IMG/VR virus record: IMGVR_UViG_3300022696_000071 | Location: 41,748 to 105,747 of that record | Strand: one strand, 5' to 3' | DNA from: a virus | Length of the DNA: 64,000 nt | Shown here: piece after piece, positions 1-19,884 of the stretch | Position numbering within the stretch: the first letter of the stretch is position 1 | Layout: each line of letters starts with the position of its first letter | Made by a program: the position numbers and the translations under genes | Notes under the pieces: generated by a model | Seen by the model: only the letters and a program-made list of their open reading frames with translations | The model's database searches: none | Told to the model about the DNA's origin: nothing

Positions 1-294
1 CAACATAGAAATAAAACCTCTACTGCTATTCGTATAAAACATCCTGAATCCGGTGCTGTTGGTGAATGTCAATCTCATAAATCTCAATTTCAGAACAAAA
101 AAGAAGCATTTAGAAGAATGGCAGATTCAAAGAAGTTTAGAACATGGTTAAATATAGAATGTTCACGAATAATGTCTGGAAAATCAATAGAACAAAAAGT
201 TGAAGAACAGATAAATGAACAATTCTTAAAATTCGAAGTGAAGGATGACAATGATAAATGGATAAACGTTAATCTAAAACATTTTGGAGAATAG
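1..294 (+). CDS. C-terminal fragment of a class-I release-factor-like peptidyl-tRNA hydrolase (RF/ArfB GGQ-domain family); 5' end lies outside the window
   Basis: Frame 1 translates to HRNKTSTAIRIKHPESGAVGECQSHKSQFQNKKEAFRRM, matching the (GGQ)HVNKT-SAVRITH-PTG-VV-CQ-ERSQ-NK-A region of RF1/RF2/ArfB. The GGQ itself would lie just upstream of position 1. Stop TAG at 292-294. Confidence 0.5.
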   Translation, partial: QHRNKTSTAIRIKHPESGAVGECQSHKSQFQNKKEAFRRMADSKKFRTWLNIECSRIMSGKSIEQKVEEQINEQFLKFEVKDDNDKWINVNLKHFGE

Positions 295-297
295 CGA

Positions 298-1839
298 ATG
301 CTTGGAGAATATTTTATTGATCGTTGTATTGAGTTATGTTGTTCTGAACAAGAAGATATAAATAGAACATTTTTTGATAATATAAATTATATAATAAAAT
401 GGTACATAAAAGAAATTAAAGAGAACGATATAGCAATAGAATTCATGACTAAGATAGAACTAACAAAATATCTATCTGAATATCGAATACTAAATAAGAA
501 ATTTAAATTCAATAAAATGATAAATAATCTCCATAATGGAAAAGCTAAGAAATTTGTAGATGTATTGAAATTACATAAAGATAAAGAATTCACAGAAGAA
601 GATTTTGAAGAACTTAATATTTTAATACTTAGTAAAAAGAAACTATGCAATAGATTAACTGGAAAATCAAAACTTCAAGTATTATTAGACGATATGGAAA
701 CCGGAAACTTTATAGATGATGATGAAGTTTCCGATAGATGGGATCATTTAATATCACGAGCATGGTCCCAATTAAATGAAATAAGACGAGTAGAATCAAT
801 TGGAAAAGTAGCAACTTTAGATTTATTAAATGATAATTATGATTCTGTAATGGAAAGTATTAGAGAATCATATAATAGAAAAAATACAATATCTACTGGA
901 TATAAGAGTGTTGATCGATTATTTCCTGCTGGTGGATTTGAACAGAGTAGATTGTATATAATTGGTGGGACATCGGGTGTTGGTAAATCAAATTTCTTGG
1001 TAAATCTTCCATGTAATGCCATAGACAATGTAGAAAATAATAGAATAATAAAATCTGGAGAAGAAGATATTTACTTATATGTAACCGGAGAAAATTTAAT
1101 ACGAGAATCACTTGAAAGATATTATTGTTGTCTTACCAAAACTCCACACGTTAAGATGGTAAAACGAGTACTTGAAGATAAAGAATTTTCTCTGAGAGAT
1201 GAAATTGTAAATCATCTTAGTCATAAAAAATCAACGATAGTAATGAAATATATAAAACCAAATTCTTCATCGACTGAAGATTTGAGAATAATGATTGATG
1301 ATTTGGCCCAAACGGGTCGATTAAAAGCTGTCTATTTTGATTACTTAGATCTGATAAGATCAAGATTAATGCTTCCAGATTTAAGACTTGATCTTGGTCA
1401 AGTATGTATTGACTTTAAAGATTTTGCAGTAGAATATAAACTCCCATTTATAACAGCAACTCAACTTAACAAATCTGGATATGATCAAGAATGTATACCA
1501 ACATTGACATCTGTTAGTGAAAGTATGAAAAAAGTTGATAATTCAGACTTTGTTTTATTCTTGCAACCAGCAAAAGATTCCCAATTCCAAATGCCATATT
1601 CTGGTGGTACAAGAGATTGTATTAAAATGAAAATGACTGTATTGAAAAATAGAAATGGTGAAACTGGAGATTCAACTTATGTAATGACTGTAAAACGATT
1701 CAATAATATGAAAGCATTTAATTATAAAATATACGAATTACCAAAACAATCTGATGATAATGGTTTAGTAATACCAGATTATAATGCTTCAACTGAATGC
1801 ACAATAACAAATGGTGATGATTGGTGTAATAGATATTAA
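298..1839 (+). CDS. DnaB-family (T4 gp41-like) replicative DNA helicase, RecA-fold ATPase
   Basis: Walker A LYIIGGTSGVGKSNFLVNL. Downstream DYLDLI (Walker B-like) and ATQLNKSG motifs typical of DnaB C-terminal domain. 513 aa. Confidence 0.55.
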   Translation: MLGEYFIDRCIELCCSEQEDINRTFFDNINYIIKWYIKEIKENDIAIEFMTKIELTKYLSEYRILNKKFKFNKMINNLHNGKAKKFVDVLKLHKDKEFTEEDFEELNILILSKKKLCNRLTGKSKLQVLLDDMETGNFIDDDEVSDRWDHLISRAWSQLNEIRRVESIGKVATLDLLNDNYDSVMESIRESYNRKNTISTGYKSVDRLFPAGGFEQSRLYIIGGTSGVGKSNFLVNLPCNAIDNVENNRIIKSGEEDIYLYVTGENLIRESLERYYCCLTKTPHVKMVKRVLEDKEFSLRDEIVNHLSHKKSTIVMKYIKPNSSSTEDLRIMIDDLAQTGRLKAVYFDYLDLIRSRLMLPDLRLDLGQVCIDFKDFAVEYKLPFITATQLNKSGYDQECIPTLTSVSESMKKVDNSDFVLFLQPAKDSQFQMPYSGGTRDCIKMKMTVLKNRNGETGDSTYVMTVKRFNNMKAFNYKIYELPKQSDDNGLVIPDYNASTECTITNGDDWCNRY

Positions 1840-1860
1840 ACTGAATCAGTTAAATATATT

Positions 1861-1878
1861 AGGACAAATTGTAAAAAT
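1861..1878 (+). promoter_or_regulatory. late-promoter-like motif aGGACAAATTGTAAAAAT
   Basis: Member of the recurring GGACAAAYTNTAAAY family, ~55 nt upstream of the ATG at 1932. Confidence 0.4.
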
Positions 1879-1931
1879 ATAACATTAATTTTTAATAGAT
1901 AATACAAACCCACAATGGGAGGATTGGGAAA

Positions 1932-2435
1932 ATGAGTAACAACGATTATATAAACTTTCTTGAAGAATCTGTATCAAGTATGCCCCGGCATAAAACACCA
2001 GCAGATGGCGTACTTAGCAGCAGAGGGAAAGATAGAGTAAATACAAAATTGGATGATCCAGAAATAGATAACATAATTAAACTCGTCACAAATCCAGATA
2101 AAAATCCAAAAATGACGGCAGAAAATGATGATGGAGAATCTACCAACGATAAATCTCCATTAAATATGCTTGAAGACGATAATTCAAATGCTTCAGATAA
2201 AGACTGCAACGTAAAAAATCTGGTCGATGAGATGACGTTGGACGAAGAAGAGAACTATATAGTAAATACTCTTCTTGATGAGATGGATTCACTTAACATG
2301 GATGACGATGTTTCTGATTCAGATTTCGAAGGCGTCGATGTAGATTCATATGAATCTTTAGATGATGACGACGATATGGATGATGATGAACTTGATGATA
2401 CAGACATTGATGACATTCTTGATTCTGATATTTAA
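1932..2435 (+). CDS. hypothetical highly acidic protein (D/E-rich C-terminus)
   Basis: ORF with SD ggagg 8 nt upstream. Acidic low-complexity tail. Confidence 0.4.
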   Translation: MSNNDYINFLEESVSSMPRHKTPADGVLSSRGKDRVNTKLDDPEIDNIIKLVTNPDKNPKMTAENDDGESTNDKSPLNMLEDDNSNASDKDCNVKNLVDEMTLDEEENYIVNTLLDEMDSLNMDDDVSDSDFEGVDVDSYESLDDDDDMDDDELDDTDIDDILDSDI

Positions 2436-2519
2436 TAAGAATCGTAATTGAAACATCTGTAATGGGGTCTTCTTTTATAGAAGATCCCATTACTTTTTAT
2501 ATGAAAGGCTATAATAGAA

Positions 2520-3023
2520 ATGTCGAAAAAGTATATGATACAAATAAAAAATGGAAGCAGGCCAATTGTAATTACAGACAAAGCATGTAAGAAAACTTTA
2601 CAAGAATTAGAAAAAATAATAACATCACATTTATCAAAAAAGAGTATATGTTCATTTAGAACTGCTTCTGATTTATTATTATCAAGATCAACCGATATTT
2701 TATCAATCCATATAAATGATGAAGATTATGATGAAAACATTGTTGTAGAAAATATGATTAGTAAAGATGATATCGAGTTTGATCTAAGTGGTGTAGATGA
2801 AAAACCTAAAAAAATAAAAGAAAATAATAAATCACAAAATGATGAAGATGAATTAATAATTGAAAAAGATGAAACATATAATTCAAAAGATGATAATTTA
2901 TTAAATAAGATAGATGAATTAGATTTTTCTGATATCAGATCAGAAGAAACAGATATATCTGAAATTATGAATGAATCTGAAGAGCTATTAGACGAAGATG
3001 ATGAGGAAGATAATGTTTCTTAA
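2520..3023 (+). CDS. hypothetical acidic protein
   Basis: ORF with typical AT-rich codon usage. Confidence 0.35.
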   Translation: MSKKYMIQIKNGSRPIVITDKACKKTLQELEKIITSHLSKKSICSFRTASDLLLSRSTDILSIHINDEDYDENIVVENMISKDDIEFDLSGVDEKPKKIKENNKSQNDEDELIIEKDETYNSKDDNLLNKIDELDFSDIRSEETDISEIMNESEELLDEDDEEDNVS

Positions 3024-3480
3024 TATATTTTTAATATCGGCAGCAACCATTTTATTTTTTTTATCAATTTATGTAATAATTGAATTATTAAATAGATGGA
3101 AAAATATAAAATTAGATCGAAGATTAAAATTATTTGATCATTATGAATATATCTATTTTATATTAGATGAGTCTGAAAAAACAGTATATGAAAAAATATT
3201 TAAAACCGATATAATTGTAAATTCATCGAGTGGATATAGATTAAACAAAGAAGACATTGAAGCTATACAAAAGAAGTATATTAGAGAAATAATGCAATGT
3301 TGTGGTGATAGCATAATAAATGACTTAATTGAAGTACACGGTGATTTAGAATCTATATCAATTATGCTCTTAAATAAGTTTATCAATAGAATCCAAGAAG
3401 ATGAACTTTCCATACTTAATAAAGTAATGGATGATGACACTGATAAACTTACCTCTAAAGAGGAGAACTTAAATGGCTAA
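2998..3480 (+). CDS. hypothetical protein with N-terminal transmembrane helix
   Basis: N-terminal hydrophobic segment FLNIFLISAATILFFLSIYVII. Confidence 0.3.
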   Translation: MMRKIMFLNIFLISAATILFFLSIYVIIELLNRWKNIKLDRRLKLFDHYEYIYFILDESEKTVYEKIFKTDIIVNSSSGYRLNKEDIEAIQKKYIREIMQCCGDSIINDLIEVHGDLESISIMLLNKFINRIQEDELSILNKVMDDDTDKLTSKEENLNG

Positions 3481-6400
3481 GAAGAAGAAAACTAATACAA
3501 ATCCAAAATCGCCTTCAATGAAGCCTTTAAAAGATAAACTTTTAAAGACTAAAAATATAGATAAAATAGATGGAATATTAGATACTATATCAAGCGCTAT
3601 AATTGATAAAGATTCAATGAATTACGCTGAATTAGTAAGACGAACATTCTCATCTGCAATTGATAATGATATGTTTTCTAATACAAGTGCAAATATATTA
3701 TTATCTTCCGATAATGTTGATAGATTTGTACGATATGCAAATTCAGATGAAATATGTGATGCTATACCATATTGTGCAAGAGCATTAAAAGTATTATCTG
3801 ATGAAATTGTATCACCAGACCATATAACAAAAGAAGTAGTTCAATTTTTAGAAGTAGATAAATTAGCAGATGAAGACAAATCTAAAAAAACTAAATTAAG
3901 AGCATTAAATAATATTCTAAGAATAGAAGATAACTTACATGACTTAGTAAATGGTACTTTAAAATATGGCGATCAGATGTTAGAAATATGTGATTATACA
4001 TCTGAAGAAGTACCAATAACACAATCTTTATTGAGCGAACAAAATGGAGGGGAAATACCATACTATGATACATTAAAAGAAGAATATGAAATAAGCGTCA
4101 TAGTAGAAAATGTTAAAGATCCAATCAATATAAAAATAAAACCAATATTGGTTGAAGATAAATCATCTAAACCACCAACATCATCAAAAAATAAAAATGA
4201 TAAATATTTAGATGATGAAAAAATGGAAATAAATAATGTAAGACTCATATTACATGATCCAAGACATGTAATAAAATTACAATCTGAACGATTCAAAATG
4301 AATCTTGGATATTTAATACTTCCAAAAACAACATCAACATCAGCAGAATATGGTGGTCATTCATCAGCCATACGCAAAGCACCAATATCAAGTTCATTAT
4401 TTCAAGGGTATAATGATTACTTGGGAATCGATAAAATATATAAAGATGTAATGAGTACAGTTAAAAGAAGAGTTAACAATGATAAAATATCAGTAGATAA
4501 AAAAGAAGCTCTAAATATGATATCAAGAGCTATAAAAGAATTCGAACAAGATACTGTAAACAATTTTAAAATAAGATTTGTTCCACCTCAAAGAATGCAA
4601 CATTTTACCATAAATGATAAACGATTCTTTCCATATGGTGAAAGTATATTCTTTAAATCAACATTTGCCGGTAAATTATTAGTAGCATTTCAAGTTGCTC
4701 TTGCTATAAAACGTATATCTGATTCATCTGATAAACGAATAATATCAGTTGAGAGTACATTACCAAGAACTGTAAGAAATCTGTTTTCAGATATCAAAAC
4801 TAAGATGAAGAAAAAACAGTTCAGTCTTGACACAATGGGTAATATATCCTCAATTCCATGTTTACATCTTGATACAAAAATACCATTAACAAATGGTTTA
4901 ATATTATCTATATCTGATATAATTGAAAATGTAAAAATGGGCAAAGAAATTGAAGTATTTGCTTATGATCATAAATCTGGACATATTGTTCCAGATAAAA
5001 TTGTTGGTGCTAAAATAACTGGTCGTAATGCAAAAGTTATGAAAATTACTCTTGATAATAACGAATCAATAATTTGTACACCAGAACATTTATGGATGCT
5101 TAGAGATGGATCTTATGTACATGCGAGTGATCTTAAAATTAATGATTCATTAATGCCTCATTATATGAGAAATACAAAATATTGTAATAATAAATGGTTA
5201 ACGTATAAAGAAGTATATCATCCAGGTATAAATAAATGGGAACTTGTACATAGAACATTTGGTAAATATCTTGGATTAGTTAAAGATGGTGATGGCAAAG
5301 TTATACATCATATAAATAAAAATCCTCAAGATAATTCAACAAGTAATTTAGATGGTCTTACTCATTCTGAACATATGTCGATTCATGCAAATGATAAAGA
5401 AAATCCAGCGTTACAATCTAATAAAACTAAAGTTTTAAAGATTGAACGTTGTGAAATGTGTGGAAAGACATATGGTAAAGATCATAGAATTCATTCATTT
5501 TCATGTTCAAAACGATGTTCTTTATTATTAATGTCTGAAAATAATAACGCATGGGAACATAGAAAGAATGAAAATCAATATAAAGAAGTAGATTACTATT
5601 GTGATATATGTGGTAAATTAATAAAAATCACAAAAGCTACATTAAAAAGACAAATTAATAAATTCATAGCATGTGATGATAAAGAATGTAGAAAACATAT
5701 GTCATTTGCTAATAGAGCAATGGGTAGATCTGGAAGATATATAGAAATAGAATTTAATAAATGTCCAATATGTAATAAATTAATAACAAATAGAAAAGAT
5801 GGCGTTAATAAAAAGTTTTACTGTAATATCCAATGTGCAAATACTGCAATGGGAAGACGCAGATGGGCTGGAAAGTCTGAAAAAATAAAAGAAAAATGCT
5901 TTAATTGTGGGGATATTTTTGAAACAACTAAAACAATTAAGAATAGCAGAACATATCAATCATGTAATAAACTTGAATGTATAAGAAATATAAAAAAATA
6001 TAATTCAACTGTAGTATTTAATAATTATCAAGATGTATGCTATATCGAACACGGAAGATGTATTGTATGTAATAAACCAACAGTATTCAATATAAGAAAA
6101 ACTGGTTATACATATTATACATGTGGAAATAAATCATGTAGTCAAGCGGCAATGCAAAATAATATTTCAAGATTTAAAAATGTTATAAATCATAAAATTA
6201 AATCAATTGAATATCTTGATGAAAGAATAACTGTTGGAGATATAGAAACTGAAAAGTTTCATAATTTTGCAACAGATGCTGGTGTAATTATACATAATTC
6301 TATGGTCACATCATTTGAAAATTTTTTTCTCCCTATGAATAAAGGCCAGAAATATATCGAATTTGATAATCTTCCTGCTGCCATTAATCTTCGTGATTTA

Positions 6401-8218
6401 TCAGATGAATTGAAGTTGTATCGTGATATGCTGGTTGCTTCGCTTGAGGTACCGCCAGCATATATCAGTCTCGAAGAGAATTTATGCTTGACTTTACAAG
6501 AGATATTACCACTTGTTGATAATAGAAATATAACGCTTAAACAATTAATAAAAGAACATGAATCTGGAATTGAACACGAAGTATATTCTTATGATCATAA
6601 TACTGGAGAAGTATTTCCAAATAAAGTTGTTTGGGCAGGCATTACCAAACAGAATACTCAATGTGTAAAAGTATGGTTAGATAATAATAAATCTATAATT
6701 TGTACTCCTGATCACCCATTCATGTTACGCAATGGAAAATATATAGAAGCACAATATTTAAATGATGGTGACTCATTAATGCCTCTTTATCAAAGAGATA
6801 GAAAAAATAGCAATGGTCGAATTTATAATGAGATTTATCATCCAGGTAAAGACAAATGGCAATTAGAACATCAAACATTTGCCAGATATACAGGAATATT
6901 GAAACAAATAACCACTGATGAACCACTCCACCATATTAACGGAAACACTAAAGATAATCGTTCATGTAATATTATACAAATTACACTAAATGAACATTTA
7001 GCAATTCATTCACGTACAAAAAAATTCACTAAGGAACAATTAGATGAATTAATGTATGATAGAGAAAAATTAAAAGAATTAATGAAACCTGGACATACTT
7101 ACGTTAATAAAAAATGTAAAATTTGTGAAAAAATATTTACCAGACTTAAAACAGATAATACAGTTACATGTTCACCAGAATGTAAATCAGAATACCATAA
7201 ACGCACTGGTTATTTATCTTGGAAATCGAGAGAGAAGAAACTAAGAAAACGATGCCCAATTATAACCAAAGAATGTGGATGGTGTGGTAAACAGTTTGAG
7301 ATGACAAAGACTGCTAAATATAATCCTGATAAACTCTACTCTTGTGGTGATAAAGAATGTAGTAAGAGATTGAAAGCGTTGAATATCTCCATTGGAAAGT
7401 TTAAAGGCGTAACTCAATATGAGATAGAATTTAAAGTATGTGAAGTGTGTGGTGAACCATTCTGTTGTAGCAAACAAGATAAATCTAAGAAATTAGATTA
7501 TGTGTGTAGAAAGATTAAATGTATAAATGAAGCGACTGCAAAAAGTAAAGGTAAAAAAAGAAGAGAGAATAAACAAACAAGAGTTGACTTGACATGTAAA
7601 ATTTGCGGTAAGAAATTCTGGCGATATAAATGGTATCTTGATGCTGTTAAAAATGAACCATCTTGTGGATCACCAGATTGTTATTCTAAACATTTTAAAG
7701 AAATTAGAAAGAAGAAAGCTGTTGGATTGAATCATAAAGTTAAGAAAGTAGAATGGTTAAAAGAACGATACGATACTGGTGATATCACAGTTGAGAAGCA
7801 TAGTAACTTCGCAGTCGATGGTTATATTTTTGTACATAATTCAAACAAATCCGCACTATCTTTCGAGAATAATTTGTTTGCAAGAACGGTAGTATCTTAT
7901 CAAAAAATGCTTGGTAAACATCTGTATGGACTTTTTAATAAACTTTATAGATTAATATACGGAGAAAATATACCTATCGGTATAAACATTATTCTTCCTC
8001 CACCACGTATGCTTCAAATAGAACGTGAAACGGAACATATTGAAACAGTTACAAGAATGATTCAATCATTGAAAGAAGTTGGTATAAATCAGGATTATCT
8101 TAAGCGTAAATATCTATCAATAGATTGGGATGAACACGATAAATTTTCTGTTAATAAGGATCTGGATGAACGAGCAGGAAAGAAGAATGAAGAGGAAGAA
8201 CAATATGGTCAATTTTAA
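3473..8218 (+). CDS. portal protein (T4 gp20-like) interrupted by two inteins; extein ~649 aa
   Basis: Extein segment LKLYRDMLVASLEVPPAYISLEEN resembles T4 gp20 [23 protein letters not shown]. It sits upstream of the prohead protease and major capsid protein genes. Two Hint-type insertions begin with C-L-x-L and end with HN followed by S. Confidence 0.65.
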   Translation: MAKKKKTNTNPKSPSMKPLKDKLLKTKNIDKIDGILDTISSAIIDKDSMNYAELVRRTFSSAIDNDMFSNTSANILLSSDNVDRFVRYANSDEICDAIPYCARALKVLSDEIVSPDHITKEVVQFLEVDKLADEDKSKKTKLRALNNILRIEDNLHDLVNGTLKYGDQMLEICDYTSEEVPITQSLLSEQNGGEIPYYDTLKEEYEISVIVENVKDPINIKIKPILVEDKSSKPPTSSKNKNDKYLDDEKMEINNVRLILHDPRHVIKLQSERFKMNLGYLILPKTTSTSAEYGGHSSAIRKAPISSSLFQGYNDYLGIDKIYKDVMSTVKRRVNNDKISVDKKEALNMISRAIKEFEQDTVNNFKIRFVPPQRMQHFTINDKRFFPYGESIFFKSTFAGKLLVAFQVALAIKRISDSSDKRIISVESTLPRTVRNLFSDIKTKMKKKQFSLDTMGNISSIPCLHLDTKIPLTNGLILSISDIIENVKMGKEIEVFAYDHKSGHIVPDKIVGAKITGRNAKVMKITLDNNESIICTPEHLWMLRDGSYVHASDLKINDSLMPHYMRNTKYCNNKWLTYKEVYHPGINKWELVHRTFGKYLGLVKDGDGKVIHHINKNPQDNSTSNLDGLTHSEHMSIHANDKENPALQSNKTKVLKIERCEMCGKTYGKDHRIHSFSCSKRCSLLLMSENNNAWEHRKNENQYKEVDYYCDICGKLIKITKATLKRQINKFIACDDKECRKHMSFANRAMGRSGRYIEIEFNKCPICNKLITNRKDGVNKKFYCNIQCANTAMGRRRWAGKSEKIKEKCFNCGDIFETTKTIKNSRTYQSCNKLECIRNIKKYNSTVVFNNYQDVCYIEHGRCIVCNKPTVFNIRKTGYTYYTCGNKSCSQAAMQNNISRFKNVINHKIKSIEYLDERITVGDIETEKFHNFATDAGVIIHNSMVTSFENFFLPMNKGQKYIEFDNLPAAINLRDLSDELKLYRDMLVASLEVPPAYISLEENLCLTLQEILPLVDNRNITLKQLIKEHESGIEHEVYSYDHNTGEVFPNKVVWAGITKQNTQCVKVWLDNNKSIICTPDHPFMLRNGKYIEAQYLNDGDSLMPLYQRDRKNSNGRIYNEIYHPGKDKWQLEHQTFARYTGILKQITTDEPLHHINGNTKDNRSCNIIQITLNEHLAIHSRTKKFTKEQLDELMYDREKLKELMKPGHTYVNKKCKICEKIFTRLKTDNTVTCSPECKSEYHKRTGYLSWKSREKKLRKRCPIITKECGWCGKQFEMTKTAKYNPDKLYSCGDKECSKRLKALNISIGKFKGVTQYEIEFKVCEVCGEPFCCSKQDKSKKLDYVCRKIKCINEATAKSKGKKRRENKQTRVDLTCKICGKKFWRYKWYLDAVKNEPSCGSPDCYSKHFKEIRKKKAVGLNHKVKKVEWLKERYDTGDITVEKHSNFAVDGYIFVHNSNKSALSFENNLFARTVVSYQKMLGKHLYGLFNKLYRLIYGENIPIGINIILPPPRMLQIERETEHIETVTRMIQSLKEVGINQDYLKRKYLSIDWDEHDKFSVNKDLDERAGKKNEEEEQYGQF
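4859..6298 (+). mobile_element. intein 1 (480 aa) with embedded HNH endonuclease and five tandem Cys4 zinc-ribbon repeats
   Basis: Starts with the C of ...SSIP|CLHLDTKIPL and ends ...GVIIHN|S. HNH motif HHINKNPQDNSTSNLDGLTHSEHMSIH. Five repeats of the form CxxCGK...YxCxxxC...AMG. Confidence 0.65.
6485..7840 (+). mobile_element. intein 2 (452 aa) with embedded HNH endonuclease and four Cys4 zinc-ribbon repeats
   Basis: Starts with the C of ...EENL|CLTLQEILPL and ends ...GYIFVHN|S. HNH motif LHHINGNTKDNRSCNIIQITLNEHLAIH. Its N-terminal splicing block parallels intein 1. Confidence 0.65.
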
Positions 8219-8232
8219 GTAGTCATATTTTA

Positions 8233-8277
8233 AATTCCAATGCATCTTTTTACATATCATGCATTGGAATTTTTTTT
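8233..8277 (+). terminator. Rho-independent terminator after the portal gene
   Basis: 13-bp inverted repeat AATTCCAATGCAT/ATGCATTGGAATT followed by T7. Confidence 0.6.
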
Positions 8278-8297
8278 CGTGTAATTTTAATATATAA

Positions 8298-8313
8298 AGG
8301 ACAAACTGTAAAT
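8298..8313 (+). promoter_or_regulatory. late-promoter-like motif AGGACAAACTGTAAAT
   Basis: Conserved motif ~27 nt upstream of the ATG at 8340. Confidence 0.5.
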
Positions 8314-8339
8314 CTAAAAAATATAGGGGATTTACAGAT

Positions 8340-8786
8340 ATGAAATATAATTCATTATTTAAAGATGTATTATATGTACTTGAGCAAGAGGAAGAAGAAG
8401 CTCAAGATACTGAAGAGACTCCACCTGCTACCGCAGATGAACAGCAGCAAGGTGGTGAGGGTGAAGAAGAAACTCCGCCCGATGAAGAATATAGTGAAGG
8501 GGAAGAAGAGACACCTGCTGAACAACTTGAAAATATAGGGAAAGTATATCAATTAAAGAAAATATATTCAAGATTATTAGCAATATCTAAATTCTTGGAT
8601 TATTACAGTGATGAAAAATATGATGAAATAAAAAATAATGTTTATGATTCTATAGATACTTTTCATATAATAGTAAATAATTATGATTCATTTGAAGATA
8701 AAATGGATGAGATAATAAAACAATATAATAATTTTTTAAGTAAACTTGCTAATATATTAGATAAACTTGTAAAAAAGGATAAATAA
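8340..8786 (+). CDS. acidic prohead core/scaffold-like protein
   Basis: E/D-rich N-terminal half. Lies between portal and protease genes, as the gp67/gp68 prohead-core genes do in T4. Confidence 0.35.
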   Translation: MKYNSLFKDVLYVLEQEEEEAQDTEETPPATADEQQQGGEGEEETPPDEEYSEGEEETPAEQLENIGKVYQLKKIYSRLLAISKFLDYYSDEKYDEIKNNVYDSIDTFHIIVNNYDSFEDKMDEIIKQYNNFLSKLANILDKLVKKDK

Positions 8787-8788
8787 AA

Positions 8789-9502
8789 ATGTATTTATTT
8801 GTTGAAGGAAGTGGATTAAGATCTCAAGCAAAAGTTGTTAAAAATACAAACAATAGAATGTATTGTGAAGTTTGTATTCAGACAGTTGGTGACTTTAATA
8901 AAAATAAAAGAAAATATAATAAATCATTAATGGAGAGTGGTATACAGAGTATATCTCATCGGTTAATGGAAGGATCATTATTGGGTGAATTAGATCATCC
9001 GGTTGATAAAAATCCAATTCGTCAGCTTACAGTTCTATATAAAGAATCTTCACATAAGTTTAGAGAAATTGGAATTGATGGTAATAAAGTAATGAGCACT
9101 ATTGAAATACTGAATGTTCCGAATGGGAATATAATGAAAGGATTGATCGAAAGTAAAGTTCCGATTGGATTTTCATTTCGTGGTGCTTCAGATGGTCTTG
9201 AGAATATAACAGAAAATGGAAGACTTGTTGGATATGAAGTTAAACCACCTCTCCATGTTGTTACATGGGATTCTGTTTCTGATCCATCTCATACACAAGC
9301 AAGAATGATAAAAGTTACAGAACAAGTTAATCGACAGTTAATGGAATCTGTTAATTTTTCATCTTATAGAGAATTAGATAATGGATTAATTGAAACAAAT
9401 ACTGGTTTGATGTATTTTCCAAATGACTTCGATAGAGTATTACAGAAACGAATTGAGCTTCTCAAGAATAAGTTTTCTGTTGGGAATTCTTGTTTAAAAT
9501 AA
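8789..9502 (+). CDS. prohead core scaffold protease (T4 gp21-like)
   Basis: NKRKYNKSLMES...LLGELDHPVDKNP aligns with T4 gp21 NKRLYPKRILEK...ALGELNHPPRANV. Directly follows the portal/core genes. Confidence 0.6.
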   Translation: MYLFVEGSGLRSQAKVVKNTNNRMYCEVCIQTVGDFNKNKRKYNKSLMESGIQSISHRLMEGSLLGELDHPVDKNPIRQLTVLYKESSHKFREIGIDGNKVMSTIEILNVPNGNIMKGLIESKVPIGFSFRGASDGLENITENGRLVGYEVKPPLHVVTWDSVSDPSHTQARMIKVTEQVNRQLMESVNFSSYRELDNGLIETNTGLMYFPNDFDRVLQKRIELLKNKFSVGNSCLK

Positions 9503-9531
9503 GAAAGTTATGTAAGGGGGTTTAATATATT

Positions 9532-10089
9532 ATGGCTATCAGTGCACCTACACAAGAAAGATCTGTTGATCCATATAGTGATAATAGATTCTCTTCGGTT
9601 ATAAATAGATTAAGTAGATTGATGACAGGGGGTGTTGATTGCATAATATATCCCGAAGTAAGTTTCCCCCTAACAAAAAATGATTACCATACTGTTAAAA
9701 TTGGTTCTGGTTTAGCATCAAAAGATGATGTTTTAATTCATACTACTGCTGATTTTTATTTAGATTTTAGTGATTCTGATTATTATGTAGATCCAATTGG
9801 TGGAATGGATACAACTGGTACATATTATATTGTATTCTCATATACTTACACTAGATCGTTTCCAGCGCCGAAGGGATATTTTAAAATAATAAAAGATGTA
9901 GCTTCATACTATACGCCATTCACAAGTGATTATATTTATATCGGATATGCTGATATTACATTTAATTCTGGAGAATTGAGATATGAAGTTAATTCTGTCG
10001 GACTAGATGATCCAGGTGGTTCAAGTAGAGAATTACCAACACTAAATCAATATGTGCCACTGGTGATAGATGGAGGGGAGGTTACGTAA
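9532..10089 (+). CDS. hypothetical virion-associated protein
   Basis: ORF in the head module. No recognisable motif. Confidence 0.3.
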   Translation: MAISAPTQERSVDPYSDNRFSSVINRLSRLMTGGVDCIIYPEVSFPLTKNDYHTVKIGSGLASKDDVLIHTTADFYLDFSDSDYYVDPIGGMDTTGTYYIVFSYTYTRSFPAPKGYFKIIKDVASYYTPFTSDYIYIGYADITFNSGELRYEVNSVGLDDPGGSSRELPTLNQYVPLVIDGGEVT

Positions 10090-10092
10090 AAA

Positions 10093-10812
10093 ATGTTAAG
10101 ATTCCCTGATCAAACACAACATCTCGATACATTTTCAGATAATAATTATGAGAATATAAATAAAGTTACTTTGAATTTTTTATGTAGTCATGAAGCATTA
10201 CGAAAAAAAGCAGTATTTATTCAAGATTCTGCTGGTACTGATAGTACTGGTGGAGACACTACGGGGGGAGATAGTACTGCGAGTATAACAACATCATCAA
10301 CATTATCAGCATTAGATTATAGAAATGCAGTTGTTCCAGGATTAAATAATTTTGAATTAATTGAAGTTGAAGTAGCACCAAATTATACTGTAAGTGTAAA
10401 TACTGGATATTGTATTATACAAGGTGTATTAATAAAATTCTCATCAAGTATTAATTTAAATTATAATTCAAATGATTCATATATATTTGGAACAACTACA
10501 AGTTGGTTGGGAATAACTGAAGATGATGTTATTCCAGATGTTGACTCATTAACAACATGTACTGTTTATGTATGCATATTTTATGATAAAGATCTTGCAG
10601 ATGATGCTTATATCGGCCTTATAGCTAATAATCAATTTATAACAGATCATATCGATAATATTATAATATTGGGTTTAGCAAATCTTGTGAGAACAAATTA
10701 TCTTGGAACTAATTACTGGAATAGTAGTTCAATAACTTATAGATGTGATGATTTTATTATAAGACCAAATGTATATGCATATATTGATGGTAATCATAGT
10801 TTATACGATTAG
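10093..10812 (+). CDS. hypothetical protein with a T/G/S low-complexity tract
   Basis: TDSTGGDTTGGDSTASITTSSTLS tract. Confidence 0.3.
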   Translation: MLRFPDQTQHLDTFSDNNYENINKVTLNFLCSHEALRKKAVFIQDSAGTDSTGGDTTGGDSTASITTSSTLSALDYRNAVVPGLNNFELIEVEVAPNYTVSVNTGYCIIQGVLIKFSSSINLNYNSNDSYIFGTTTSWLGITEDDVIPDVDSLTTCTVYVCIFYDKDLADDAYIGLIANNQFITDHIDNIIILGLANLVRTNYLGTNYWNSSSITYRCDDFIIRPNVYAYIDGNHSLYD

Positions 10813-10845
10813 AAATTATTATTTATATATAGGGGGTAAATATAA

Positions 10846-13800
10846 ATGTCTCAAGATGGAACAATAATAAAATTAATGCGTAGAACTGCACCTGCTATCG
10901 GCACACTTGTATTATCATCTGGTGAACCAGCATTTACAACTGATACTCATCAGTTGTATATTGGTGATGGTACTAAATATGGTGGTCATTTGATCGGTGG
11001 ATTTCAAAAATTCTTTAGACGATTTATAAGTTCTGATGATAATATATATCCGGAGCATCTTATTTGCTGTGATACTTCAAGTAATACTGTTACTCTGTCA
11101 CTCCCTGATGATCCAGCTATTGGAAATCAGATACGTCTTGTTGATTGTCAGAAAACATTTGATGTAAATAATTGTATTCTTGAACGTGGCGATTCATCTC
11201 ATAGAATAAATGGAACACAAGCAGATCTTACATTATCTACAGTTGGTCAATATGTTCTGTATTATGGAACTGATGGAACAAATGATACTTGGTTTGTATT
11301 TTCTGTTAGTGGTGAAAAATGGTTTGATGATTCTGTGGAAGGTGTATATTCTGTGGTGTATAAAGATGATTCATACACAGCAGTGAAGAATCAATTAATT
11401 CTTGCCGATGTATCTTCTGGACCAGTAACAATAACATGCCCAGATGGTCCAACTCTTGGAGATAAATTTAAGATTGAAGATTATTCAAATTCATTTGATT
11501 CAACTGCTTTAGTTATTACATCAGTAAGTGAAACTATAAATGGATTAAGTGAAAATTTAGAATCAGCTACAGAGGGGGAAGTAATAACATTAATATATGA
11601 TATTATATCTGATGGTACTTTTTCATGGGTTCCAAAATATGGACGAGATGACGAATTCAGTGTCGAAGAAGTTGGAAGTATGGTCTATAATGGGGCAAGT
11701 GATCCAACTGGATCTGCTCAAGTTGGATCATATTATATAAATACTACTTCATTTACAATATTTCAATACCAATTAAGTGGTGGTACTGGAAGTTGGGTCG
11801 AGTTATGTGGAGGCATTGTTGTCTCAGAAGATCTTGATTTATATGTTTCAACATCTGGAAATGATACAACTGGAACTGGAGCATCTGGATATCCTTGGGC
11901 AACACCAAATAAAGCAATGGAATATTTAGCTGGAAAAACTATTGCTTCTGATGCAACTGTAACAATTCATATTGCAGATGGTGATTATGAATTACCATCA
12001 ACTCTCAATTTAAGTAGTCCAAGTGGAAAAAATATTCAGATTATTGGAAATGAAGATACACAAACATCATTAACATATGTAACTAATGGTATAGATTCTG
12101 GAGATCATTACATTGATGTATCTGGAGATCATGCATCTAAATTTCCAGATAATAGTCTTATTGAACTTGTTGGTGGTATAAATGCTGGTTATTATGTTGT
12201 AGATAGTGCAACATATTCTGCACCAAATACAAGAATAAAATTAACAACTAATTTTCCAGATTATACTGTTACAACTGGAACAAGCGTAAAAGATGTACCT
12301 TGGTCACATAAAGTAAGATTTTATTTTGATTTCAATACTGATAATGGGATAGATTTAGATAATGCAGATATTGGGTTAATAAAAGGAATAACTATAGACA
12401 AAAAGACATCTGGAAATAGTGGTGGTCGTTCATTTAACATAATAAATAATAGTTATGCATATTTACAAAATGTATATTTTGGTAATAAGAATAGTGGTGC
12501 ATGGACTACCGGATTAAGAATAGATAATAATAGTTATGTTAGAGGATCATCTATTTGTTCAGCATATAGTGGTGGAATATCTATACTCGCAGAAAGTGTA
12601 TTACGATCTATAGATATGAATTGTATAGTTGGAAATATTAGTATAAGTGGATCATCTGAATTAACAGGTAGCGGTCAATATGGTAATATAACATTATATA
12701 ATTCAAATGCGGACATTGGTAGTAGTGTATTTGTAATGGGTAGGATTACAGTATCTGGAAATTGTAGCGTAGAAGTCGGATATAGTAAATTCTACAATTC
12801 AGAATCTTCTGGCGCACATACATTAGATTGTGATGGTATAAATGCAAGAATTAATGCTGTTAGTTCAGAATTTATCGGAAATTCTTCTGATTATTGCATT
12901 GATGTTTCTAATGGTGGTATGGTATCGGCAATTGATGCTGAAATAAGCGGATATAGTATAGGTGCGCATATAAGAGAAAATGATGGCTGGATTAATATCG
13001 TTGGTGGAACTATTGATGAGTGTTCCACTGCTATTGAAGCAAACTCAGGAAGAATATATGCAAAAAATGCAACCATAAACGATTGTACTACAACTGGTGT
13101 TAATGTAGCAGAAGGTGGATATGTCGATGTTACTGGAATATCATTTACTGGAACAACACCATCAACCAGATATAACATATTACCAGATACAGAAGGTTCT
13201 GTAGAATTTGTTTCTTCATTTATGGTTAAAGGCGCAACTTTATCAAGCGATTTAACTCTTACAGTTGATGGATCATCGGGTAGTGATACTGAAGGTGATG
13301 GATCTGTTGGATCACCTTTTGCAACTATACAGTATGCATTATCATATGCTAAAAAATACAGAATTAAAAGTGATAAATGGCTAACCATAAGTATTAAAGA
13401 TGGAACATATAATGGTCCAATAAATATTGATCATTCTGATGCCGATAGAATAAAATTAATAGGCGAATCTGAAGCTGGAGTTATAATTAATTGTACTGCT
13501 AATGGAATAGATATTAGTCCAGGGAAAAGATTATATGAAATAAATAGAATGACACTTAATCATACTGGTGGTAGTTCAAATTCAAGAGCTATAAATCTTG
13601 AAGGAAGATGTGTTGTTGATTATATTCACTATGTTATAATGAATGATTTCGGTTTTGGTTTATATGTAAGACAAGATAGTCGTATTGTTCATGTAGATAA
13701 TATACATATAAATGATACTTTAAATGATGCAATTGCTCTTGATTATGGTTCTTATTTATATGGATTTAATGTAGAAATAAGTGGAACTGGTGCATCTGGA

Positions 13801-14124
13801 TGTAAAGGTATTGCTGTAGAACATGGAAGTGGTCTTGATCTAACTACGGGTGTAGATATAGATACAACAAGTACTGATTTTGCTTATGGTATATGGTGTA
13901 TTGGTGGATCATATGCATTTGTTGGAGGATCAAATAGTGGCGTTGCGAATTGCACGGTTGGAGCATATGGTCATACTGGTGCTACACTAATATTAAATGA
14001 TTTAGATTTTGCTAATAATGGTACACATTGTGATCCAGCAGCCACTACAACTGAAGATGCTTCTCCAACATATGGGAATTGGGGAGGTACAATATTTGCA
14101 TACAATGGATGTACATTTGATTAA
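10846..14124 (+). CDS. large beta-helix-like (pectate-lyase-fold-like) structural protein, possibly a fibre/spike or capsid decoration
   Basis: 1092 aa rich in G/N/S/T/V with many short GxxxG/N-containing beta-strand-like repeats (e.g. NNSYAYLQNVYFGNKNSGAWTTGLRIDNNSYVRGSSIC) typical of right-handed parallel beta-helices. Confidence 0.4.
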   Translation: MSQDGTIIKLMRRTAPAIGTLVLSSGEPAFTTDTHQLYIGDGTKYGGHLIGGFQKFFRRFISSDDNIYPEHLICCDTSSNTVTLSLPDDPAIGNQIRLVDCQKTFDVNNCILERGDSSHRINGTQADLTLSTVGQYVLYYGTDGTNDTWFVFSVSGEKWFDDSVEGVYSVVYKDDSYTAVKNQLILADVSSGPVTITCPDGPTLGDKFKIEDYSNSFDSTALVITSVSETINGLSENLESATEGEVITLIYDIISDGTFSWVPKYGRDDEFSVEEVGSMVYNGASDPTGSAQVGSYYINTTSFTIFQYQLSGGTGSWVELCGGIVVSEDLDLYVSTSGNDTTGTGASGYPWATPNKAMEYLAGKTIASDATVTIHIADGDYELPSTLNLSSPSGKNIQIIGNEDTQTSLTYVTNGIDSGDHYIDVSGDHASKFPDNSLIELVGGINAGYYVVDSATYSAPNTRIKLTTNFPDYTVTTGTSVKDVPWSHKVRFYFDFNTDNGIDLDNADIGLIKGITIDKKTSGNSGGRSFNIINNSYAYLQNVYFGNKNSGAWTTGLRIDNNSYVRGSSICSAYSGGISILAESVLRSIDMNCIVGNISISGSSELTGSGQYGNITLYNSNADIGSSVFVMGRITVSGNCSVEVGYSKFYNSESSGAHTLDCDGINARINAVSSEFIGNSSDYCIDVSNGGMVSAIDAEISGYSIGAHIRENDGWINIVGGTIDECSTAIEANSGRIYAKNATINDCTTTGVNVAEGGYVDVTGISFTGTTPSTRYNILPDTEGSVEFVSSFMVKGATLSSDLTLTVDGSSGSDTEGDGSVGSPFATIQYALSYAKKYRIKSDKWLTISIKDGTYNGPINIDHSDADRIKLIGESEAGVIINCTANGIDISPGKRLYEINRMTLNHTGGSSNSRAINLEGRCVVDYIHYVIMNDFGFGLYVRQDSRIVHVDNIHINDTLNDAIALDYGSYLYGFNVEISGTGASGCKGIAVEHGSGLDLTTGVDIDTTSTDFAYGIWCIGGSYAFVGGSNSGVANCTVGAYGHTGATLILNDLDFANNGTHCDPAATTTEDASPTYGNWGGTIFAYNGCTFD

Positions 14125-14156
14125 TTAATTAAACAATTTATTATGAGAATAAACTA

Positions 14157-14780
14157 ATGAAAGATGAAAAAACAGTGAATATATTAATAGTTGATGATAA
14201 AGAAGATATATGTAAAACATATAAGGAGATATTAGAAGATTCATTGAAATCTTCTAATATCTTCACTGCAAACACATATGAAGAAGCTGTAAATATAGTG
14301 GAAAAAAATAGCATAGATTTGATAATCGCAGATATATTTTTGAAAGATGACATTAAATCATTAAAAGATTCTGGTATAGATGTATCATATGAAGCTAAAA
14401 AGAAAGATTTAAATACTCAGATAATTATATTTACAGGGATTCCTGCCGTCAATACTGCAACTGAAGCAATTCATCTTGAAGCGTTTGATTATTTAACAAA
14501 GCCAGTTAAACCAGAAGCATTAATAAGATCAACAATTAATGCATTGGATAAAAAAAGGTTATTAGATGACAGGAATACAATCGAACAAGAAAAAAATATA
14601 TTACAATCTAAATTAGAAGATGTGTTAAGTGAGAAATATATAACAGATAAACAATTTCAAAAACTTATGAGCAACTTCAAGAACAAACGAAAGAAACTAG
14701 AATCTCATTCTGATACAGTCCAGAAAAAACTGATCGATGCGATTTCAAGAGTTAAACTTGGAGATACAAAATATGAATAA
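14157..14780 (+). CDS. stand-alone response-regulator receiver (CheY-like) domain protein with a coiled-coil C-terminus
   Basis: NILIVDDKED (acidic pocket), DLIIADIFL (phospho-accepting Asp), IIIFTG (conserved T), DYLTKP (conserved K). Confidence 0.6.
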   Translation: MKDEKTVNILIVDDKEDICKTYKEILEDSLKSSNIFTANTYEEAVNIVEKNSIDLIIADIFLKDDIKSLKDSGIDVSYEAKKKDLNTQIIIFTGIPAVNTATEAIHLEAFDYLTKPVKPEALIRSTINALDKKRLLDDRNTIEQEKNILQSKLEDVLSEKYITDKQFQKLMSNFKNKRKKLESHSDTVQKKLIDAISRVKLGDTKYE

Positions 14781-15435
14781 TGGTAATAAAGATATTCAAG
14801 ATAGCAATTTTGTTTCAGAAAAAATGGTGGCAATGATTTTTGATCAAGTTAATGCTGTTATTGATAAAATGGCTGGAAGTGTTTCAACTAACACATCTGT
14901 AATAACTGATTTGATTAATACAATTGGTAATGCTCCGAAAGAAACTCTTGAGTTATTAAAATCACAAGAAGGGTTAGCAAAAGATATCTTACATGATCTG
15001 GACAATATAAAAAATGTACTAAAAACAATTGATTCATGCAGTCATACTTTGGAATCAAAACTTGATCCATTAGACAGTATAAAATCTCAAATAGATAAAT
15101 TATATGATAAAATAGAAAAATTAAGAGATATAGAAACATCAATAAATAATATAGTAGATTCTAAAATAGCACCAATCATGCCGATAAAAGATTTACCAAA
15201 AGATATTAAATCTTTAAATGAGAATATGATAAAGAATACTACTAATATAGAAAATCTGGACAAAAAAGCATTTAAATTATCTGTTATATTAGGGGTAGTA
15301 TGTAGTGCTGCTGTCGTAATAGGCGGAATGATGTGGAAGATATTATCAATATTACAATCTCCAGAATTTGCTAAATTATTAGATACGCTACACCAAATAC
15401 ATCACACATTGCCACCTGGAGGTCCTGGTCCATAA
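14737..15435 (+). CDS. coiled-coil protein with a C-terminal transmembrane helix
   Basis: Heptad-like repeats. C-terminal LSVILGVVCSAAVVIGGMMW. Confidence 0.3.
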   Translation: MRFQELNLEIQNMNNGNKDIQDSNFVSEKMVAMIFDQVNAVIDKMAGSVSTNTSVITDLINTIGNAPKETLELLKSQEGLAKDILHDLDNIKNVLKTIDSCSHTLESKLDPLDSIKSQIDKLYDKIEKLRDIETSINNIVDSKIAPIMPIKDLPKDIKSLNENMIKNTTNIENLDKKAFKLSVILGVVCSAAVVIGGMMWKILSILQSPEFAKLLDTLHQIHHTLPPGGPGP

Positions 15436-15464
15436 TTTATTTTTTTATAAAGGAAATCTATAAA

Positions 15465-15743
15465 ATGAAACTAACATCATATCCAGAACAAGAATTTAAC
15501 ACGAAAATTGATACAGAATTTTTAAATCAAGCGATATCAAAATATGTAGAAACAGCAAAGATACCAAAATCAGTACCTTTGTCTCAACTTACAAAAAACA
15601 TTAAAAGATATACAGAAGAATCATCTAAGATATTGCAACTTATAGAAAAATCTGAGAAACTTACAAATGAAATAATGTCTAAAAATACACAAATGAATTA
15701 TGAATGTGAAAGAATGATAAATAAAATAAGATCAACTATTTAA
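15465..15743 (+). CDS. hypothetical protein
   Basis: ORF only. Confidence 0.25.
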   Translation: MKLTSYPEQEFNTKIDTEFLNQAISKYVETAKIPKSVPLSQLTKNIKRYTEESSKILQLIEKSEKLTNEIMSKNTQMNYECERMINKIRSTI

Positions 15744-15779
15744 TTATAGCGTTATAAGTTAAAGTGAGGTATTCTCTAA

Positions 15780-15795
15780 AGGACAAACTGTAAAT
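15780..15795 (+). promoter_or_regulatory. late-promoter-like motif AGGACAAACTGTAAAT
   Basis: Identical 16-mer to the site at 8298, upstream of the gene at 15829. Confidence 0.5.
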
Positions 15796-15828
15796 TAATA
15801 TATAGATAGATTATATATGAATATTTAA

Positions 15829-16245
15829 ATGGAGATTAAATTGGAAATATCATCTACTGAAAAAATTAATGGAGAATATTTAAATACTGAAGAACTTTTA
15901 TCTTACTTATCTCAAATAGTTATGGTAAAAAAAGATGAAGATTTAAGAAAGAAATCTGAACAAATAAAAACCATAAAATCGAAGATAAGAAATGATAAAG
16001 ATAAATTAAACCAATTAAAAATTCGTCTGAAACATGTTCATAATGAAAATAATAGATTATCCAAACTTCATGATGTCTTATCCAATATACAATCCTTAAT
16101 GAGAGAAGGTTTGATGGGAAATAATCGACTGAAAGTTATTAATCTATTAGATAATATAAAAGATGATGATATCAAAACTCTTGATAGAATCAATTTAAAA
16201 TTATCTCAATTTAATAGACAATCATTTGGTATGATTTCCACATAA
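15829..16245 (+). CDS. small coiled-coil protein, candidate scaffolding protein
   Basis: Highly charged helical sequence immediately upstream of the major capsid gene (the gp22 position in T4). Confidence 0.3.
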   Translation: MEIKLEISSTEKINGEYLNTEELLSYLSQIVMVKKDEDLRKKSEQIKTIKSKIRNDKDKLNQLKIRLKHVHNENNRLSKLHDVLSNIQSLMREGLMGNNRLKVINLLDNIKDDDIKTLDRINLKLSQFNRQSFGMIST

Positions 16246-16282
16246 AACCCAATATTACTAATACATTAAGGAGATATGAAAA

Positions 16283-17737: not shown

Positions 17738-17986
17738 TACCATTTTTACACTTTGATAGTGATCCAACCGCCATTATCGCTGTCATGCTCCATGCTCCAT
17801 TCGTTCCACACCATTGGTTCTAATAGATGCCCGATCCAGGTTCTTGCCATTGTCTCCTGGTGAGGGCATCTATTAGCGTGTCTATAAATAATTATATATA
17901 TTAAATAGTAGAAGCAATTGTTGTATCATTTTTTCATAAATGATATTTTATATTTTTAATTATTTTTTATTTGAAAGGGTATAATT

Positions 17987-19864: not shown

Positions 19865-19884
19865 TATAAAAAAGGAGGTACTCA

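Follow-up and report, generated by a model that had tools for sequence, protein, structure and literature searches.

The gene for a portal protein of the T4 gp20 type, together with two inteins inserted in it, was analyzed in a 64,000-nucleotide stretch of viral DNA (positions 41,748 to 105,747 of the IMG/VR record IMGVR_UViG_3300022696_000071), referred to below as the window and used as the frame for all coordinates. The portal precursor is encoded by an open reading frame (ORF) composed of three extein segments separated by the two inteins (Table 1). In both inteins, an HNH nuclease domain followed by a tandem array of Cys4 units, here also called fingers, sits in frame between the N- and C-terminal halves of the Hint domain.

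Table 1. Features of the portal gene and its neighbors in the window (aa, amino acids; a caret marks an intein insertion junction)
Feature	Position	Strand	Description	Basis
Portal (T4 gp20-type) precursor ORF	3473..8218	+	1581 aa, uninterrupted, two inteins inside	ORF listing
N-extein	3473..4858	+	aa 1-462, end ...GNISSIP	End-to-end alignment with nine intein-free homologues
Intein 1	4859..6298	+	Class 1, site 1 (SIP^SMV), 480 aa, aa 463-942; CLHLDTKIPL...GVIIHN^S	PF14890; AlphaFold2 (AF2) model
HNH domain of intein 1	5204..5392	+	His-Me finger, HNH_3; intein aa ~116-178	PF13392; PHROG HNH families
Five Cys4 units, intein 1	5438..6178	+	First Cys at intein aa 198, 248, 302, 347, 401	Regular expression, shuffle test
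C-terminal Hint segment, intein 1	6188..6298	+	NHK...VIIHN	Conserved N444, H445, K446, N469-A471, H479, N480; pLDDT 96-98
Middle extein	6299..6484	+	62 aa, SMVTSF...SLEENL	Alignment with intein-free homologues
Intein 2	6485..7840	+	Class 1, site 2 (EENL^SNK), 452 aa, aa 1005-1456; CLTLQEILPL...YIFVHN^S	NCBIfam intein_Nterm/intein_Cterm
HNH domain of intein 2	6821..7018	+	Intein aa ~113-178; motif LHHINGNTKDNRSCNIIQITLNEHLAIH	Second HNH_3 stretch; alignment with intein 1 HNH
Four Cys4 units, intein 2	7103..7720	+	First Cys at intein aa 211, 264, 319, 371	Regular expression, shuffle test
C-terminal Hint segment, intein 2	7730..7840	+	NHK...IFVHN	Alignment with intein 1, NCBIfam match, site-2 orthologues
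C-extein	7841..8218	+	125 aa + stop, start SNKSALSFEN	Alignment with intein-free homologues
DnaB-like helicase	298-1839		Upstream of portal, T4-like module	
S77 prohead protease	8789-9502		Downstream of portal, T4-like module	
gp23-type capsid protein (MCP)	16283-17737		Downstream of portal, T4-like module	
Tail sheath	42878-44590		Downstream of portal, T4-like module	

Both insertions are class-1 inteins, and splicing activity is predicted for them from their sequence features. The precursor matches the Pfam family Intein_splicing (PF14890) in two stretches with 126.7 bits (cut-off 35.8), and the NCBIfam models of intein termini, TIGR01445 and TIGR01443, match as well. The class-1 nucleophile at intein position 1 corresponds to C463 and C1005 of the precursor, block B (TxxH, intein positions 74-77) reads TPEH in intein 1 and TPDH in intein 2, and the C-terminal junctions are IIHN^S and FVHN^S; residues T74, H77, H479 and N480 are conserved among 27 inteins. 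The two inteins are 30% identical over their full length (BLASTP 1e-67). In the AF2 model of intein 1, the mean predicted local distance difference test score (pLDDT) is 81.9, with block means of 92-98 over most of the Hint and HNH segments, and the best Foldseek matches of this model are PI-PfuI, the TliVMA intein and mini-inteins (down to E = 6e-9). The two inteins are inserted 62 codons from each other, in two portal motifs that are among the most conserved. The fused extein junction is ...TCCTCAATTCCA^TCTATGGTCACA... at site 1 (also given as GACACAATGGGTAATATATCCTCAATTCCA^TCTATGGTCACATCATTTGAAAATTTTTTT) and ...GAAGAGAATTTA^TCAAACAAATCC... at site 2 (also given as CCAGCATATATCAGTCTCGAAGAGAATTTA^TCAAACAAATCCGCACTATCTTTCGAGAAT), and the DNA around both sites is strongly conserved among intein-free alleles. 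No further inteins were detected in the window by tblastn with both inteins.

In silico splicing of both insertions yields an extein product of exactly 649 aa. This product matches the Pfam family Portal_T4 (PF07230) with an E-value of 9.4e-15 and 54.7 bits (cut-off 22.9), the match spanning both junctions, whereas the unspliced precursor gives no match to this family at E <= 1 in the Pfam scan. Since the portal family becomes visible only after the insertions are removed, this result supports their identification as inteins. A profile of the exteins with 11 intein-free homologues matches the solved gp20 portals 6uzc, 3ja7 and 9lu6 at about 1e-13. Assignment to the T4 gp20-type portals is thus based on the Pfam profile, the match to solved gp20 structures and the synteny of the head module: the order DnaB, portal, S77 protease and gp23 MCP is shared with a metagenomic relative (L001), whose portal is intein-free.

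The possibility that the inserted segments are native portal domains and not inteins is refuted by the homologues of the spliced protein. The search with the spliced extein retrieved 68 relatives, mostly of 640-690 aa and without inteins, at identities of up to 54%. In nine of them aligned end to end (34-54% identical, 641-668 aa), not a single residue falls into either set of intein columns, and the flanks match exactly, as ...G(N/S)I(G/S)SIP^SM(I/V)T... and ...(L/I)EENL^SNK(S/N/A)AL.... The segments moreover have homologues among the inteins of other proteins, including GyrB, RtcB and peptidases, and the Hint fold is confirmed; no point in favor of native domains was found, and this reading retains practically no probability.

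The precursor also matches the Pfam family HNH_3 (PF13392) in two stretches (37.6 bits, cut-off 24.8), one per intein, and several PHROG HNH families. Residues H150, H151, N159, N163 and H172 are invariant or nearly so among the 27 inteins, and the conserved His and Asn are present in both inteins of the window. The model of intein 1 shows the beta-beta-alpha fold of the HNH (His-Me finger) nucleases, with strands at 147-151 and 164-168 and a helix at 169-177; across this element, the block-mean pLDDT drops from 94-96 to 83. No LAGLIDADG family was found in the Pfam, PHROG or NCBIfam scans, and the two inteins do not belong to the LAGLIDADG type. An earlier reading of this DNA from its letters alone (the original prediction) had proposed two inteins with a Hint-type start and an (I/F)(I/V)HN^S end, HNH nucleases in place of LAGLIDADG, and a gp20-like portal of about 649 aa after their removal. 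All three proposals agree with the data above, as do two of the checks it had suggested, namely the Pfam Hint and HNH hidden Markov models (HMMs; PF14890 and PF13392, two stretches each) and the alignment of extein junctions with intein-free gp20 homologues.

The region following the HNH domain is occupied by the Cys4 arrays. The inteins contain 24 and 23 Cys residues, respectively, versus 3 in all exteins together, and in 20,000 residue shuffles per intein the observed number of units was never reached (mean 0.08, maximum 2). Each unit has a first Cys pair, CxxC, that precedes (G/N/E)(K/D/E); 14-20 residues separate this pair from the second, which has the form CxxxC in three units and CxxxxC in the other six. 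The sequence AMG is limited to two units of intein 1, with AAMQ in a third. Of the motif put forward in the original prediction, the arrays of five and four Cys4 units therefore stand, while the spacer of 10-14 residues after GK, the fixed GK itself, CxxxC as the sole second pair and the general AMG were not borne out. Both arrays are highly basic, with net charges of +27 (intein 1) and +35 (intein 2), and the units would be expected to bind zinc through their four Cys ligands. The array of intein 2 matches the PHROG family phrog_1271, annotated as ‘HNH endonuclease’ (3.3e-07).

Comparison of orthologous inteins points to selection on these arrays. No variation occurs at any of the 20 finger Cys of intein 1 among the site-1 orthologues (n = 5), while the two other Cys vary. 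In the site-2 orthologues (n = 10), the 16 finger Cys of intein 2 are kept in nearly all sequences, with exceptions in the second pairs of units 2 and 4. The two inteins of the window retain all 36 finger Cys. The mean identity among site-2 orthologues is 0.34 for the array and 0.38 for the HNH domain versus 0.20 for the linker, so the array and the HNH domain appear clearly constrained relative to the linker, and the arrays are probably under purifying selection. Units with the same index are more similar to each other (0.38 identity) than units with different indices (0.28), that is, each array position is more like its counterpart in other inteins. Position-specific motifs are conserved in the helices that follow the Cys residues in the site-2 inteins; unit 2, for example, is followed by NISxGK, and unit 3 contains CINT. 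The slot between the HNH domain and the C-terminal Hint segment is devoid of Cys4 units in most other HNH inteins; in those whose sequences were inspected, a Lys/Arg/Glu-rich stretch takes this place after the HNH domain.

In AlphaFold models, each Cys4 unit consists of a beta-hairpin knuckle bearing the first Cys pair and a helix that starts at the second pair. A single unit was modeled with a pLDDT of 91.6, with the second pair at C31 and C36 and the helix at 34-49. The structure prediction suggested along with the original prediction thus gives discrete Cys4 units, as anticipated, but not the ribbon fold: the second pair lies at the start of an alpha-helix in both models and not on a second beta-hairpin knuckle, and the label ‘zinc ribbon’ is probably wrong. 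According to the models, the units are probably treble-clef/FCS-like rather than classical zinc ribbons. They weakly resemble FCS, TRASH and YacG-type fingers; no structural match confirming any fold class was found, the NCBIfam scan returned nothing for the fingers, and no Pfam or NCBIfam model describes them. C2H2 zinc fingers were considered and rejected, as the units have four Cys ligands and repeat about every 50 aa, versus about every 28 aa for C2H2. C2H2 proteins are the best PDB matches of a single-unit profile, but the alignment covers the CxxCGKxF knuckle alone, as it does for the Pfam C2H2 match; because these matches are spurious, the single-unit profile was left out of the exhaustive search described below. 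A PDB sequence search with the profile of HNH plus array returned no significant match, not even to I-HmuI.

A search with intein 1 retrieved many HNH inteins in GyrB, RtcB, peptidases and portals, with at least two Cys4 units in just 2 of the top 120 proteins. The HNH-plus-array module was then used as the profile for an exhaustive search of 1.84 billion representative proteins. At E <= 1e-30 the search gave about 20 metagenomic clusters, which with few exceptions are portal precursors of 1000-1600 aa; one metagenomic precursor (P0189, 1595 aa) has the same layout of two inteins with five and four fingers. Mapping of the intein boundaries in these relatives with HMMs of the Hint termini revealed three insertion sites within 66 codons of the portal gene. 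At site 1, with the flanks (S/T)IP^S(M/Q), full-length inteins of 480-488 aa carry five fingers, and mini-inteins of 138-144 aa occur. At site 2 (EENL^SNK), the full-length inteins are mostly of 438-465 aa, some reaching 600 aa, and have four fingers, or five to seven in the larger ones; the degenerate forms are a 323-aa HNH-less remnant (P0146) and mini-inteins of 143-161 aa. Site 3 (SNK^S(V/A/S)L) harbors full-length inteins of 359-396 aa with two fingers, and no degenerate forms were seen there. In a neighbor-joining (NJ) tree the inteins cluster by site, and the three site groups fall together, apart from non-portal HNH inteins. The mini-inteins and the HNH-less remnant are nested inside two of the three site clades, those of site 1 and site 2. 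Such a pattern is what would be expected of a cycle of homing, fixation and decay with occasional switching of sites.

All 25 retrieved inteins with at least two fingers reside in T4-type portal genes. The original prediction had regarded two inteins in one portal gene as notable in itself, which does not hold for metagenomic T4-type portals, where two, three or four are found. Within the same portal clade, four precursors have two inteins (P0189, P0190, P0191, P0197) and one has three (P0001); among more distant T4-type portals, there are two in P0241 (1308 aa), three in P0208 (1789 aa) and four in P0204 (2296 aa). Judging by the Intein_splicing stretches in the latter three proteins, HNH inteins seem to have a hotspot in T4-type portal genes.

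The exhaustive search also returned many proteins of 200-510 aa in which an HNH domain near residue 90 precedes 2-10 fingers with the pattern CxxCG..F..(Y/F/T)CSxxC. The intein module aligns with one of these free-standing proteins (P0216) with an hhalign probability of 99.4% over 206 columns spanning the HNH domain and the fingers. Like the inteins, the free-standing phage HNH endonucleases (PHROG 1271, PAE1 Orf3, P0211, P0216, P0234, P0297) have HNH_3 directly followed by 2-10 Cys4 fingers; unlike them, they are stand-alone genes, often in packaging modules, without a Hint domain, and their finger period is about 37-41 aa versus about 50 aa in the inteins. In Pseudomonas phage PAE1, for example, the GenBank entry has Orf3, with an HNH domain and two fingers, between TerL and portal. 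This family is annotated merely as ‘HNH endonuclease’ (PHROG 1271), and none of its members appears to have been characterized. The architecture described as unusual in the original prediction is therefore unusual inside inteins but common among free-standing phage HNH endonucleases, from which, judging by the sequence comparisons, the module was most likely recruited.

Several further proteins are related to this family or its motifs. The search contained finger-only proteins, among which the metagenomic P0203 (1662 aa) has the longest array: 29 tandem units CxxCG..F..(K)TCSxxC of the intein-finger kind, preceded by an N-terminal TFIIB-type zinc-binding motif. In Clostridium phage phiCDHM19 (L032, NC_028996.1, 443-2842), the annotated TerL carries an intein (...NKHDDA^CFEEGT...GFLVSN^CDATTG) whose middle part looks like junk in frame. 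In another frame, an overlapping 221-aa ORF (2056-2721) encodes an HNH domain with two Cys4 fingers of FCS-like type and is homologous to the free-standing HNH-finger proteins. The locus looks like a homing endonuclease gene nested out of frame inside an intein, and this arrangement could be an intermediate towards the in-frame fusion of the window inteins. In the window itself, a 625-aa ORF (17987-19864, + strand) directly downstream of the gp23-type capsid gene has N-terminal CxxCGK-type Cys motifs, DUF7487 repeats and an MTES_1575 restriction-endonuclease-like domain, and probably represents a homing endonuclease gene of the free-standing kind within the head module.

Several components of this system have been described before. 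In-frame HNH inteins have been known since Dalgaard et al. 1997, as cited in a preprint (bioRxiv 10.1101/2025.01.02.630785), and the HNH_3-type inteins of GyrB, RtcB and dCTP deaminase form ‘group 22’ of the His-Me finger classification (PMC5714182). The latter differ from the portal inteins in their host genes and in the post-HNH region, which has no tandem Cys4 units or a single one. Inteins of actinobacteriophage portal proteins have been reported (Kelley et al. 2016, PMC5050341; Gosselin et al. 2025, bioRxiv); there, too, phage portal genes are interrupted, but the portals belong to a different family (IPR009279), and the Gosselin survey places portal inteins in the canonical LAGLIDADG class and does not list the portal among the hosts of non-canonical endonucleases. 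The intron-encoded endonuclease I-HmuI (PF05551/PF13392, group 2; PDB 1u3e) resembles the intein module in having an N-terminal His-Me finger nuclease and an extended modular C-terminal DNA-binding region (PMC5714182), and by analogy may serve as a working model for a module that lies along a long target. Its DNA-binding region, however, is made of helices and a helix-turn-helix without zinc fingers, and no sequence match between I-HmuI and the module was found at E <= 1. The engineered Zif268-N.phiGamma HNH fusion (PMC3592412) combines an HNH cleavage domain with a tandem zinc-finger array, as the inteins do, but this fusion and other engineered zinc-finger nucleases or nickases are artificial, and their fingers are of the C2H2 type. 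The ‘zinc ribbon HNH’ enzymes that occur in nature, which are nickases, have one or two zinc sites and not arrays of 4-5 (PMC3592412). Full-text searches of open-access papers turned up both HNH inteins and inteins of portal proteins, as well as ‘zinc ribbon HNH’ enzymes that have one or two zinc sites, and no description of tandem finger arrays in inteins. In summary, in-frame HNH inteins, portal inteins and multi-intein genes were already known, and the unusual element here is the HNH-plus-finger module inside inteins.

The virus from which the window derives is an uncultivated, AT-rich, T4-like myovirus, probably a jumbo phage. The contigs of its relatives in IMG/VR reach 277 kb, and about half exceed 200 kb. 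With GenBank phages, the capsid protein shares no more than about 28% identity, and jumbo and huge phages are the best matches. At the DNA level, megablast of window positions 1-20000 against GenBank phages found nothing, and tblastn of the precursor against the same phages was limited to distant HNH inteins of 26-33% identity. A look-up of the exact precursor in the assembly index gave no entry. Other features of the window include two adjacent 167-aa ORFs upstream of the portal (1932-3023, +), which are extremely Asp/Glu-rich with long acidic tails and were assigned to no family, and a 795-aa hybrid sensor histidine kinase (48966-51353, +) with PAS, weak HisKA, HATPase_c and receiver domains, an unusual phage gene located in a phage-like region. 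A 1921-aa ORF (58234-63999, -) that extends to one base short of the window edge has a phage lysozyme domain at about residues 1642-1750 and may encode a virion-associated or ejection protein. Genes for tRNA Phe-GAA and Lys-TTT (32065-32381, -) are located between divergently oriented gene blocks.

We consider it probable that the two class-1 portal inteins, with their HNH_3 domains and basic Cys4 arrays, are homing endonucleases whose arrays read the intein-less allele. In the proposed scheme, the precursor would splice twice after translation, so that both inteins are released and the exteins are joined into the 649-aa portal. Once excised, each intein would attack the portal genes of co-infecting relatives that lack it, as a site-specific endonuclease. 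With its finger array stretched along the conserved sequence that flanks the insertion site, the HNH domain would be placed to nick or cut the DNA, and repair by recombination with the intein-bearing allele would copy the intein in. One ancestral portal intein of the HNH-finger type probably diversified to the three neighboring sites. Just 12 copies of the portal are needed per virion, and the portal may therefore be a tolerant host for inteins. A role of the array in DNA recognition is plausible because of its positive charge, the apparent purifying selection, the finger number characteristic of each site, the position-specific helices and the lack of Cys4 units in the same slot of most other HNH inteins. 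A more far-reaching version, possible but doubtful in our view, is that the tandem fingers form a natural modular array that reads DNA position by position, a few base pairs per finger, with finger number and identity setting the homing site. The three site lineages would then have arisen by gain, loss and divergence of fingers, and the same code would operate in the free-standing enzymes and could be reprogrammed.

Several points weigh against the homing interpretation. Splicing, zinc binding, DNA binding and cleavage are all predicted from sequence, and the relative orientation of the fingers is unreliable in the intein 1 model, which has a predicted template modeling score (pTM) of 0.53. 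The GC content of the inteins and that at third codon positions (GC3) are as low as in the host gene, which suggests that the inteins are old residents, and their present mobility is conjectural. Finally, in the zinc-finger homing endonucleases studied so far, I-TevI and I-TevIII, the single finger is a linker or dimerization element and no base-reading module. This last observation leads to the main competing explanation, in which the array does not read sequence but serves as a non-specific clamp, as a ruler or linker that sets the cleavage distance, or as a module for dimerization or protein-protein contacts, specificity being provided by the HNH region or the Hint surface. The high positive charge fits non-specific binding equally well, and the families to which the fingers show weak likeness (FCS, TRASH and YacG-type) include protein-binding and non-specific nucleic-acid-binding members. 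However, the finger number follows the insertion site across divergent orthologues and each array position keeps its own identity, while a generic clamp would need no position-specific helix motifs; we therefore regard a non-reading array as unlikely.

The match of intein GC and GC3 with the host gene would also suit a history in which the inteins are long-standing residents that only splice, their endonuclease modules being inactive relics kept since their removal would disturb folding or splicing. Degenerate relatives, such as the mini-inteins of 138-161 aa and the HNH-less P0146 of 323 aa, do exist, but the window inteins retain the HNH His and Asn, all of the finger Cys and an uninterrupted ORF, and across the site-2 orthologues the array and the HNH domain are clearly constrained compared with the linker, which makes this history decidedly improbable. 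With 16-20 metal-ligand Cys per intein, the arrays might alternatively be zinc or redox sensors that make splicing, and hence portal maturation, conditional, and metal- or redox-sensitive conditional splicing is known for other inteins. Yet the same HNH-plus-finger module is present in free-standing nucleases without a splicing domain, the arrays are basic, as expected of nucleic-acid binders, and mini-inteins at the same sites manage without them; a sensor function is thus very improbable.

HNH inteins are known but uncommon and poorly characterized. In the portal inteins, the usually variable region after the HNH domain is replaced by four to five conserved basic Cys4 fingers, and the number of fingers tracks three neighboring sites of one gene, which offers a compact natural system for studying modular DNA reading by a non-C2H2 array. 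Through these inteins, intein endonucleases are also connected with the free-standing HNH-finger nucleases of phages, a very large uncharacterized family. Should the fingers turn out to be modular, they would represent a new scaffold for programmable nickases, and the inteins would be natural zinc-finger nucleases; if they do not, the portal genes of jumbo phages would still provide a well-documented case of intein diversification and decay.

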